Source: Oscarella lobularis
Taxonomy: Eukaryota
Reading direction: 5' to 3'
DNA length: 45,521 bases
Assembly: GCF_947507565.1 (NCBI RefSeq)
Contig: NC_089176.1
Location: forward strand, 4,076,882-4,122,402
Shown here: positions 43,271-45,521 of the stretch, piece after piece
How positions within the stretch are numbered: the first letter of the stretch is position 1
How the letters are laid out: each line of letters opens with the position of its first letter
The notes under the pieces: model-generated
Databases searched by the model: none
Told to the model about the DNA's origin: nothing
Seen by the model: only the letters and a program-made list of their open reading frames with translations
Translations under genes and position numbers: made by a program

Positions 43271-43580
43271 TTAGCTTAGCCCAGCTTAGCCCAGCTTAGC
43301 CCAGCTTAGCCCAGCTTAGCCCAGCTTAGCCCAGCTTAGCCCAGCTTAGCCCAGCTTAGCCCAGCTTAGCCCAGCTTAGCCCAGCTTAGCCCAGCTTAGC
43401 CCAGCTTAGCCCAGCTTAGCCCAGCTTAGCCCAGCTTAGCCCAGCTTAGCCCAGCTTAGCCCAGCTTAGCCCAGCTTAGCCCAGCTTAGCCCAGCTTAGC
43501 CCAGCTTAGCCCAGCTTAGCCCAGCTTAGCCCAGCTTAGCCCAGCTTAGCCCAGCTTAGCCCAGCTTAGCCCAGCTTAGC
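43271..43580. repeat. 10-bp tandem satellite (CCAGCTTAGC)n, ~31 units
   Basis: Perfect repeats cttagcccagcttagcccag... ending in ...ccagcttagcttagggttaggg, merging into telomere-like sequence. Confidence 0.95.
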
Positions 43581-43650
43581 TTAGGGTTAGGGTTATGGTT
43601 AGTGTTGGGATTATGGTTAGGAGTTAGGGAGAGGGTTCAGGGTCAGTGTA
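43581..43650 (+). repeat. degenerate interstitial telomeric sequence (TTAGGG variants: TTATGG, TTAGTG, TTGGGA, TTAGGA...)
   Basis: ttagggttagggttatggttagtgttgggattatggttaggagttagggagagggttcagggtcagtg. Confidence 0.8.
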
Positions 43651-43905
43651 AATTCTGGCCACTATTTTTGCGAACCTTATCATCTCCGCTAACCTACAGC
43701 TAACCACAAGAGCCCTGACCTACTCGCTCCTAGACACGGACGTTCCAAACGCGTGATCGGAGGAGAAGGAAGAGGAGATCCTGAGATGCCACAATCTACT
43801 CGACCAATACGAGAGGTACGTTTCTTCAATCTTTCTTTCCTTCTTTCTTCTTACTTTCTTTTCTTTAGAGAGAGAGAGAGAGAGAGAGCCAGAAATGGAT
43901 GGGTC

Positions 43906-45188
43906 TTAGGGTTAGGGTTAGGGTTAGGGTTAGGGTTAGGGTTAGGGTTAAAAGATGTACCCACTTGGGTGACTGGGTCATATGATACACCGTTGGATAG
44001 AGCTTTCAAAGAGCTTTCGAATGGACCTATATCTTCTGTACAAATTCTTTGATTTGAAAAAGTTAATGACAAGTGATACACCGTTGGAAAGAGAATGAAA
44101 AGAGCTATTGAATGGACCTATATCTTCTGTAGAAAATATTTGACATGAAAAAGTTCTAAGTGTTTGACTTTGGGGCAGGTGTTTAGGAGTTGGGGTAGAG
44201 TGTTTTAGGCTTAGGTTTAGGGTCAGGTTTGGGGTTACGGGTTTAAAAGTGTACCCAGTTGAGTGACTGGGTCATATAATACACTATTCGAAAGAGCTTT
44301 TAAAGAGCTTTTGAATGGACCTATATCTTCTGTACAAATTCTTTGATTTGACAAAGATATACCCTTGGGTGAGTGTTAGGGTTAGGTTTGGGTTAAAAGA
44401 TGTACCCACTTGGGTGACTGGGTCATATGATACACCGTTGGATAGAGCTTTCAAAGAGCTTTCGAATGGACCTATATCTTCTGTACAAATTCTTTGATTT
44501 GAAAAAGTTAATGACTTAGGGTTAGGGTTAGGGTTAAAAGATGTACCCACTTGGGTGACTGGGTCATATGATACACCGTTGGATAGAGCTTTCAAAGAGC
44601 TTTCGAATGGACCTATATCTTCTGTACAAATTCTTTGATTTGAAAAAGTTAATGACAAGTGATACACCGTTGGAAAGAGAATGAAAAGAGCTATTGAATG
44701 GACCTATATCTTCTGTAGAAAATATTTGACATGAAAAAGTTCTAAGTGTTTGACTTTGGGGTTAGGGTTAGGGTTAGGGTTAGGGTTAGGGTTAGGGTTA
44801 GGGTTAGGGTTAGGGTTAGGGTTAAAAGATGTACCCACTTGGGTGACTGGGTCATATGATACACCGTTGGATAGAGCTTTCAAAGAGCTTTCGAATGGAC
44901 CTATATCTTCTGTACAAATTCTTTGATTTGAAAAAGTTAATGACTTAGGGTTAGGGTTAGGGTTAAAAGATGTACCCACTTGGGTGACTGGGTCATATGA
45001 TACACCGTTGGATAGAGCTTTCAAAGAGCTTTCGAATGGACCTATATCTTCTGTACAAATTCTTTGATTTGAAAAAGTTAATGACAAGTGATACACCGTT
45101 GGAAAGAGAATGAAAAGAGCTATTGAATGGACCTATATCTTCTGTAGAAAATATTTGACATGAAAAAGTTCTAAGTGTTTGACTTTGG
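43906..45188 (+). repeat. telomere-associated repeat array: ~120-bp unit A (aaagatgtacccacttgggtgactgggtcatatgatacaccgttggatagagctttcaaagagctttcgaatggacctatatcttctgtacaaattctttgatttgaaaaagttaatgac) and ~105-bp unit B (aagtgatacaccgttggaaagagaatgaaaagagctattgaatggacctatatcttctgtagaaaatatttgacatgaaaaagttctaagtgtttgactttgggg) interleaved with (TTAGGG)3-11; higher-order period ~427 bp
   Basis: Unit A at 43950-44070, 44396-44515, 44534-44655, 44823-44942, 44963-45082; degenerate copy 44250-44350. Unit B at 44071-44160, 44656-44760, 45083-45188. Short TTAGGG tracts at 43906-43949, 44516-44533, 44761-44822, 44943-44962. Also a (GA)10 tract at 43868-43887. Confidence 0.9.
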
Positions 45189-45521
45189 GGTTAGGGTTAG
45201 GGTTAGGGTTAGGGTTAGGGTTAGGGTTAGGGTTAGGGTTAGGGTTAGGGTTAGGGTTAGGGTTAGGGTTAGGGTTAGGGTTAGGGTTAGGGTTAGGGTT
45301 AGGGTTAGGGTTAGGGTTAGGGTTAGGGTTAGGGTTAGGGTTAGGGTTAGGGTTAGGGTTAGGGTTAGGGTTAGGGTTAGGGTTAGGGTTAGGGTTAGGG
45401 TTAGGGTTAGGGTTAGGGTTAGGGTTAGGGTTAGGGTTAGGGTTAGGGTTAGGGTTAGGGTTAGGGTTAGGGTTAGGGTTAGGGTTAGGGTTAGGGTTAG
45501 GGTTAGGGTTAGGGTTAGGGT
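45189..45521 (+). repeat. terminal telomere array (TTAGGG)n, >=55 perfect units running to the end of the window; G-rich strand 5'->3' on +, so the window's 3' end is a chromosome end
   Basis: Uninterrupted ttagggttaggg... from ~45189 to 45521. Confidence 0.95.

Follow-up and report, generated by a model that had tools for sequence, protein, structure and literature searches.

Chromosome ends with internal telomere repeats

Yeast, nematodes, and humans are known to have subtelomeres in which telomere tracts are interspersed. In Saccharomyces, the Y′ element is a subtelomeric unit of 5–7 kb that carries a helicase open reading frame (ORF) and internal TG1-3 tracts, and it is associated with type I survivors. 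Oscarella lobularis, a homoscleromorph sponge, provides a further example: the final 2.3 kb of a 45,521-bp stretch of its DNA (contig NC_089176.1, positions 4,076,882 to 4,122,402; the whole stretch is hereafter called the window) consists largely of a satellite of two parts, designated A and B, which alternates with tracts of TTAGGG and runs into a terminal telomere. This end is best read as the outcome of repeated truncation, telomere healing, and recombinational re-extension, in the manner of Y′ and of the nematode element TALT, and this reading is considered fairly probable. Literature searches found no description of sponge subtelomeres; the Oscarella end is a clean case of a known type of structure, in a group for which no earlier description was found.

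TALT (template for alternative lengthening of telomeres, or ALT) has been described in Caenorhabditis elegans, including the natural chromosome VR end of CB4856, where a short internal telomere precedes TALT copies that have telomere repeats on both sides (PMC4595603; PMC6581047). This has been interpreted as attrition, followed by ALT or break-induced replication (BIR) and then by capping with telomerase, all in a telomerase-proficient animal (PMC4595603; PMC6581047). The Oscarella satellite resembles TALT in that a block with telomere repeats on both sides recurs in tandem at chromosome ends, a short internal telomere marking the old end. The two differ in that TALT has an identified internal donor locus and has been observed at a single natural end, or at every end only in telomerase mutants, whereas in Oscarella the repeat is the established layout of at least 12 sampled ends and has no known internal donor.

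Like Y′, the Oscarella satellite is a tandem subtelomeric unit with telomere tracts between its copies; it is common to many ends, recombination or BIR apparently amplifies it and moves it between them, and a conserved core element lies on its proximal side. Unlike Y′, its unit is small (about 0.22–0.45 kb), non-coding, and truncated at many arbitrary positions before a telomere tract; it also belongs to an animal with TTAGGG telomeres. The Sultan arrays of Chlamydomonas reinhardtii (PMC8287924) similarly combine a telomere, an array of fixed orientation, a conserved Spacer-like element present at most ends, and a short G-rich satellite, and their terminal unit is occasionally truncated. They differ in the order of microsatellite and conserved element and share no sequence relationship with the Oscarella repeat, and the text of PMC8287924 does not mention interstitial telomere tracts in Sultan arrays ('interstitial telomer' occurs 0 times). 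A constant proximal telomere junction, variable distal truncation, and re-capping are further shared with Athena and Coprina, which are Penelope-like elements (PLEs) lacking an endonuclease (EN−; PMC8557442), and with Drosophila HeT-A and TART. Unlike these elements, A/B encodes nothing and possesses no ribozyme, its multi-unit blocks suggest copying of DNA, and the PLEs nearby are EN+.

Layers of the terminal 2.3 kb

The layers were read directly from the sequence and with Tandem Repeats Finder (TRF). T denotes a TTAGGG tract and the number following it the copies, d marks a degenerate version, and A and B are defined as 120 bp and 102 bp, respectively. From the inside outwards, the window ends as follows.

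43273–43580, + strand: 10-bp satellite (AGCTTAGCCC), 30.8 copies, 100% perfect (TRF)
43581–43643, + strand: degenerate TTAGGG, 63 bp, about 10 units at 70% match (TRF and direct reading)
43644–43905, + strand: unique 262-bp segment, allele-specific, without homologue in any fetched locus
43821–43866 and 43867–43888, + strand, within the unique segment: CT-rich tract, then (AG)11
43906–43950, + strand: innermost perfect telomere tract, T7.5, separating chromosome-specific sequence from A/B satellite
43951–44070 and 44071–44172, + strand: A and B, respectively, of the first full A-B unit
44173–44245, + strand: degenerate T, 73 bp
44246–44359, + strand: degenerate A (dA), positions 1–115, 90%
44360–44395, + strand: 36-bp linker, a truncated A start plus degenerate T3
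44396–44824, + strand: 429-bp repeat, copy 1, consisting of A, T3.5 (44516–44536), A-B (44537–44758), and T11 (44759–44824)
44825–45187, + strand: 429-bp repeat, copy 2, consisting of A, T3.5 (44945–44965), and A-B (44966–45187)
45188–45521, + strand: terminal telomere, (TTAGGG)55.7, perfect, G strand 5′ to 3′ toward the end

An earlier note on this DNA, made from the letters alone, had described a layered chromosome end with about 31 satellite copies and at least 55 perfect terminal repeats. TRF and direct reading of the last 2.3 kb recovered the layers in place, with 30.8 perfect copies and 55.7 terminal repeats up to the last base. The higher-order repeat that it placed at about 427 bp exists with a period of 429 bp; only two identical copies are present, not three or more units, and the first unit is just T7.5-A-B. 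Similarly, the unique segment given as about 250 bp with (GA)10 is real, yet it measures 262 bp and its microsatellite is (AG)11. What had been taken for a degenerate, older unit proves to be no early copy of the 429-bp repeat found here; it is the canonical unit of about 451 bp that dominates other ends, of which 44173–44395 is a fossil half.

The block from 44396 to 45521 reads A-T3.5-A-B-T11-A-T3.5-A-B-T55.7, and the leading A of copy 1 is a unit truncated at position 120. Copies 1 and 2 of the 429-bp repeat show 0 mismatches (TRF reports 2.1 copies at 99%), the window's five A copies are identical, and so are its three B copies. B is itself an 85% paralogue of A positions 33–114, and the A/B boundary is simply the place of one truncation. 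A 22-bp core common to A, dA, and B occurs nine times between 44019 and 45146, with 0 occurrences expected by chance, and nowhere else in the window. Both the terminal tract and the internal T11 begin at one and the same B|T junction, GACTTTG|GGGTTA. At the inner edge, the 10-bp satellite passes into degenerate TTAGGG at CTTAGC|TTAGGG, a junction sequence found identically at another end (L007), and the degenerate tract at 43581–43643 is read as a putative old healed tip at the satellite. The unique 262-bp segment showed no similarity to local PLEs.

The alternate contig atg002525l (ENA assembly ERZ18545485) is identical to the window, and its last base is window position 45521. The telomere tract accordingly forms the physical contig end, with the G strand outward, and the window terminates at a genuine chromosome tip. 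No CCCTAA-strand tract of two or more units was found in the window or in any locus examined; this lack, together with the position at a contig end, rules out a head-to-head chromosome fusion as the source of the interstitial telomere sequences (ITS).

The A/B satellite at other chromosome ends

Arrays of A/B at other ends were reached through accidentally called ORFs spanning the repeats, in the single assembly ERZ18545485. This yielded 11 further contigs: ptg000371l (L001), ptg000585l, ptg000094l, ptg000262l (L008), ptg000093l (L012), ptg000104l, ptg000133l, ptg000171l (L020), atg000179l, atg001934l, and atg000495l (L019). P0016 was carried by 14 contigs, seven of which (7/14) are 0.2–1 Mb. 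On all 12 A/B contigs, the window included, no more than about 20 kb separates the arrays from a contig end, and most of these contigs have unrelated proximal sequence. All 512 of 512 A/B matches on the 12 contigs are oriented with the G strand outward and none is inverted; 0 matches occurred in 136.8 kb of proximal flank or in the other 43.9 kb of the window. Within this sampling, the earlier proposal that A/B is associated with telomeres and not dispersed holds. Nine of the 12 contigs, again counting the window, end in T17–T108 right after the array, and the L011 contig stops inside its array without a telomere. L008 carries a mini-array at least 20 kb from the contig end; its last tract is T22.8, and PLE copies lie beyond it.

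The canonical unit, dominant at the other ends, is about 451 bp long (453 bp in L004) and has the structure A-B-dT-dA-linker. Its arrays exceed 10 kb, as in L011 with 22 uninterrupted units. The window's 429-bp repeat is a young local derivative of this unit. Several ends also contain super-repeats of the form [T ... truncated unit]: L014 has three copies of about 3 kb each, L007 a repeat of about 4.4 kb, and L004 one of about 4 kb.

No coding or ribozyme function could be attached to A/B. Its longest ORFs are of 130 aa or less and overlap telomere tracts, and homology searches for an origin bearing a reverse transcriptase (RT) returned only other accidental A/B ORFs. A search with the 130-aa minus-strand ORF gave mostly NPNPNP/TLTL low-complexity noise, P0002 being the only real match; a concatenated six-frame A/B pseudo-protein gave 8000 low-complexity candidates, none of which scored; and exact look-ups of the window's 88-, 130-, and 60-aa ORFs in the telomere-associated sequence (TAS) returned only atg002525l. 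A coding role for the TAS ORFs was rejected, these being translated repeats and telomere tracts. The 22-bp A/B core had 0 matches in JGI metagenomes and GTDB genomes. At E ≤ 1, a search of both strands of window positions 40000–45521 matched no Rfam family, and hence no hammerhead in A/B. Identity with a retrozyme was ruled out by the absence of a hammerhead ribozyme from the unit, and identity with a telomere-attached retroelement was rejected, as the homology searches led to no RT-bearing element.

Alternative versions of an end and probable copying between ends

In a comparison that covers contig ptg000371l up to its distal 6.4 kb, this contig and the window are 100% identical over 20,215 bp (window 23227–43441) and then diverge. 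The ptg000371l satellite has about 16–17 copies and leads straight into T5.5-A-B-dT-dA (...CTTAGCC|TTAGGG...), with neither the degenerate ITS nor the unique 262-bp segment, the latter being absent also from all other ends compared. Its A and B belong to a different subfamily from those of the window, marked by G46A in A, a G>A change in B, and the linker 'ggttacgg'. Truncation within the satellite, a new T tract, and another subfamily therefore identify two forms of the window's end, with the array captured from a different donor.

A second allelic pair, L008 and L019, is 99.94% identical up to a breakpoint at L008 8632/8633 and L019 1662/1663. Past the breakpoint, L019 runs on through at least 6 kb of DNA with GKAP-like and CD36 ORFs before its array, and L008 has T4.5-A-B at once. 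This pair displays the first steps of the proposed process, truncation and the appearance of T-A-B, directly.

The A/B subfamily changes exactly at the fossil junction A1-16|T5.0 in both L012 and L020, with the reference type proximal and the G46A type distal. These two loci have no proximal similarity, yet their distal 3.9 kb is 99.9% identical up to the tip, and the common block includes both the fossil junction and the terminal B1-83|T junction. An identical distal block is what copying of a donor end right to its tip predicts, and the two sequences point to copying in trans between chromosome ends. The [T ... truncated unit] super-repeats in turn fit repeated invasion of an internal T tract on the same or a sister end.

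Chromosome ends in Oscarella might be kept up by two mechanisms acting constitutively, telomerase capping in alternation with an ALT-like process that copies a dedicated template of about 451 bp, in normal and possibly somatic tissue. The two versions of the window's end, with 100% identical flanks over 20 kb but different truncation points and A/B subfamilies, would then be mosaic products of a single animal and not inherited haplotypes; this is regarded as unlikely.

Junctions of the telomere tracts

The 29 perfect T tracts compared, from eight loci, have a single distal junction, GGGTTA|AAAGATGTACCC, at A position 1; on their proximal sides, the same tracts have about 20 distinct junctions. 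Proximal junctions inside repeat units were mapped onto the canonical unit, and microhomology was counted against the telomere repeat. This gave 17 truncation points, at positions 16, 38, 75, 87, 120, 146, 189, 201, 218, 222, 238, 254, 260, 263, 301, 312, and 356, with a mean microhomology of 2.3 nt. Microhomology of at least 1 nt was present in 15 of the 17 (binomial P = 7e-8 against p = 0.25) and of at least 2 nt in 12 of the 17 (P = 2e-11). The terminal tract starts after the end of B in the window, after A1-16 in L004 and L019, after B1-83 in L012 and L020, and after dA1-89 in L014.

Every array likewise begins, at its innermost boundary, with a T tract that leads into A position 1, irrespective of what adjoins it proximally: the unique segment in the window, the 10-bp satellite in L001, L007, and L012, a repeat of about 155 bp in L004, and gene flank in L008. 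The L004 repeat, at about 11690–12350, is an unrelated tandem array that adjoins the innermost T8.5.

Tract length can differ at one and the same junction: one junction in L019 has values of 5.0, 17.2, and 60.2, and the window's B|T junction values of 11 and 55.7. Such variable lengths fit internal tracts acting as seeds of new terminal telomeres, a behaviour reported from yeast for ITS-disrupted BIR (PMC7736798).

Proposed mechanism and alternative explanations

Under repeated truncation, healing, and recombinational re-extension, the perfect TTAGGG tracts inside the satellite would be former chromosome tips. An array, or the unique DNA proximal to it, would first be truncated at an arbitrary position, and de novo telomere addition would then cap the broken end, mostly at a microhomology of a few bases. 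The new and often short telomere would next invade a T tract lying inside a sister end or a different one, and BIR or unequal exchange would copy the donor from the invariant T|A junction out to its tip. Repetition of the cycle would generate higher-order repeats such as the window's 429-bp unit and would spread array subfamilies between ends. With age, tracts would degenerate into the dT portions of the ~451-bp unit, which is itself built of AB, an old T, a truncated A, a short fossil with an A start, and another old T, and internal T tracts could seed terminal telomeres.

The observations that this scheme draws together are the anatomy and distribution of the arrays, the asymmetry of their junctions, microhomology, the subfamily switch, shared blocks, and allelic truncations; from them we infer the acting enzymes (telomerase and the BIR machinery) and the timing, germline or somatic. 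The earlier note had seen healing and exchange in the embedded TTAGGG tracts, and junction asymmetry, microhomology, the subfamily switch, and the shared distal blocks speak for that view.

Several points weigh on the other side. All A and B copies are identical within the window, so that the argument leans on other ends, and these were sampled via accidental ORFs in one assembly, so that the absence of A/B from chromosome interiors covers the sampled flanks only. Microhomology is 0 nt at positions 75 and 120 and at the L008 breakpoint. There is also a sole exception to the T|A junction, T60.2 of L019 (14660–15030), which is followed by a 5′-truncated dA from about position 84. Lastly, a constant distal junction combined with variable truncation is the classic signature of 3′-anchored, 5′-truncated addition, a pattern that BIR from the T|A junction predicts equally.

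An ordinary satellite evolving by unequal crossing-over and slippage might produce a similar picture, with the T tracts being in-situ expansions of telomere-like motifs and not tips. The unit does hold telomere-like stretches (dT), and four of the junctions lie inside dT (positions 238–263) with 3–5 nt of identity; variation of T-tract length at a single junction and super-repeats of 3–4.4 kb (L014, L007, and L004), which are typical of unequal exchange, would follow as well. Most T tracts, however, replace the rest of a unit truncated at positions that are not telomere-like (e.g. 38, 75, 87, 120, 146, 189, 201, and 356), and T-A-B also follows immediately on unique DNA and on the 10-bp satellite. 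Nor does expansion account for a subfamily switch at a T tract, and it cannot produce allelic terminal deletions. In-situ expansion is accordingly regarded as improbable.

The main rival is the one that this signature suggests, RNA-templated, retroelement-like extension of ends. Here, the template would be an antisense, C-rich A/B RNA with (UAACCC)n at its end; it would anneal to the G-overhang and be reverse transcribed by a Penelope-like RT or by telomerase, yielding a constant T|A junction, variable distal (5′) truncation, and re-capping by telomerase. PLEs with RT and GIY-YIG domains do occur in the same subtelomeres, in antisense, with homologous 3′ termini that adjoin GGGTTA| in the phase of A, and attachment to G-overhangs is known for EN− PLEs (PMC8557442). 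The Oscarella PLEs nearby are EN+, however, and A/B itself has no RT ORF, no hammerhead, and no other Rfam match, ORF searches having led only to accidental ORFs. Between T tracts, the shortest segments measure 120 bp and the longest comprise over 10 kb of units without interruption, and the identical 3.9-kb block of L012 and L020 is predicted by donor copying and not by independent retro-additions. RNA-templated addition is hence given little credence.

An assembly artefact, whether chimeric joins via telomere-like repeats or a collapsed or expanded repeat in the HiFi assembly, is scarcely credible: repeats complicate the assembly of ends, the primary and the alternate contig differ in two cases, and L011 lacks a telomere, but the window's TAS and telomere together occupy only about 1.95 kb, far under HiFi read length, identical junction types recur on independent contigs, the 512 matches share one orientation, and nine contigs end in telomere tracts.

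The record that truncation, healing, and re-extension would have left is unusually legible in Oscarella, with one distal junction, many microhomology truncations, subfamily switches, and allelic terminal deletions. If the scheme is true, a telomerase-type animal telomere routinely joins de novo capping to recombinational copying, in a highly regenerative lineage that branched off early. For studies of telomere length, ALT, and TERRA-type (telomeric repeat-containing RNA) transcription in Oscarella, probes are available in the A/B unit and its conserved proximal element, and the arrays call for caution in the assembly curation of chromosome ends.

The short satellite and the conserved element proximal to it

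A conserved subtelomeric element of about 0.5–1.4 kb lies directly proximal to the short satellite. It was delimited by BLAST of the window against L007, L012, L014, L017, and L019.

Window 41882–43272, + strand: conserved subtelomeric element
L007 8212–9008: conserved element
L012 4529–5495: conserved element
L014 5721–7134: conserved element
L017 about 7635–8103: conserved element
L019 6680–7570: conserved element

The element is 78–90% identical across at least six ends and always holds the same place relative to the satellite. Neither an Rfam family nor a convincing ORF was identified in it. Variation is almost absent from its last ~110 bp, which comprise TATATAAG, a GC-rich block, and the palindrome GCGCATGCGC about 10 bp before the satellite. 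These ~110 bp look promoter-like, and that they might form a telomere-directed promoter is only a guess.

The 10-bp AGCTTAGCCC satellite follows the conserved element also in L007 (11 copies) and L012 (7 copies), and in L012 it leads straight into ...CTTAGGGTTA|A. Its copy number thus varies between ends, as it does between the window's two alleles (about 31 versus about 16–17). A 20-bp dimer variant, CCCAGCGTAG+CCCAACTTAG, is present in L014 (7135–7198) and L017 (about 8130–8356). In L019, an 11-bp variant, (CCCAGGGTTAG)n, occupies the same place after the conserved element (7571–7735) and holds the direct G-strand heptamer GGGTTAG; the satellite is therefore tied to the telomere repeat in direct and not in inverted orientation. 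A derivation of the 10-bp unit from inverted telomere sequence, as the earlier note had proposed, is not supported in view of this variant, and no CCCTAA tract of two or more units was found in any locus examined.

Penelope-like elements in Oscarella subtelomeres

PLEs carrying RT and GIY-YIG domains are found in the subtelomeres, always antisense to the direction of the telomere.

L008 10487–20189: PLE, ORF 15085–18333, − strand
L018 301–9242: PLE, ORF 5408–8098, − strand
L017 about 8830–9979: PLE
L014 about 7290–9598: PLE, ORF 8294–9532, − strand

In three PLE copies, the homologous 3′ terminus adjoins a T tract in the phase GGGTTA|. The L018 element is bracketed by T5.8 and T27 and carries an internal 154-bp tandem array of 18 copies. 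Rfam searches of the PLE-bearing loci gave nothing at gathering level, and a sub-threshold Hammerhead_1 in L018 (20.4 versus 34 bits, E = 0.51). These antisense EN+ PLEs could be a telomere-targeting or telomere-repeat-associated lineage in a sponge.

Genes and duplications of the window

The window's genes encode proteins with epidermal growth factor (EGF)-like repeats, with short introns, NB-ARC/TPR proteins, CoaE, and pieces of a xylosyltransferase; the CoaE ORF is 98% identical to XP_065826875.1 of Oscarella lobularis. Tandem paralogues of dephospho-CoA kinase (2425–3003 and 4943–5449) and of NB-ARC/TPR (NLR-like) proteins (31–1653 and 10906–13929) lie less than 45 kb from the tip, and together these paralogues are a typical subtelomeric gene-family expansion.

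Just inside the subtelomere, a tandem segmental duplication of about 8 kb pairs 26634–32959 with 34216–40580 at 91–95% identity. On it lie paralogous minus-strand genes of about 311/314 aa (25644–26579 and 33227–34171), whose products have a Gly-rich hydrophobic core and belong to no Pfam family. Other duplicons, of 1.3–4.5 kb and 95–98% identity, are shared between ends that lack the window's flank (the proximal parts of L004, L014, L017, and L020), and the resulting mosaic at Oscarella ends resembles that of yeast and human subtelomeres. A perfect run of 26 G lies at 40495–40520, about 2.7 kb proximal to the 10-bp satellite.

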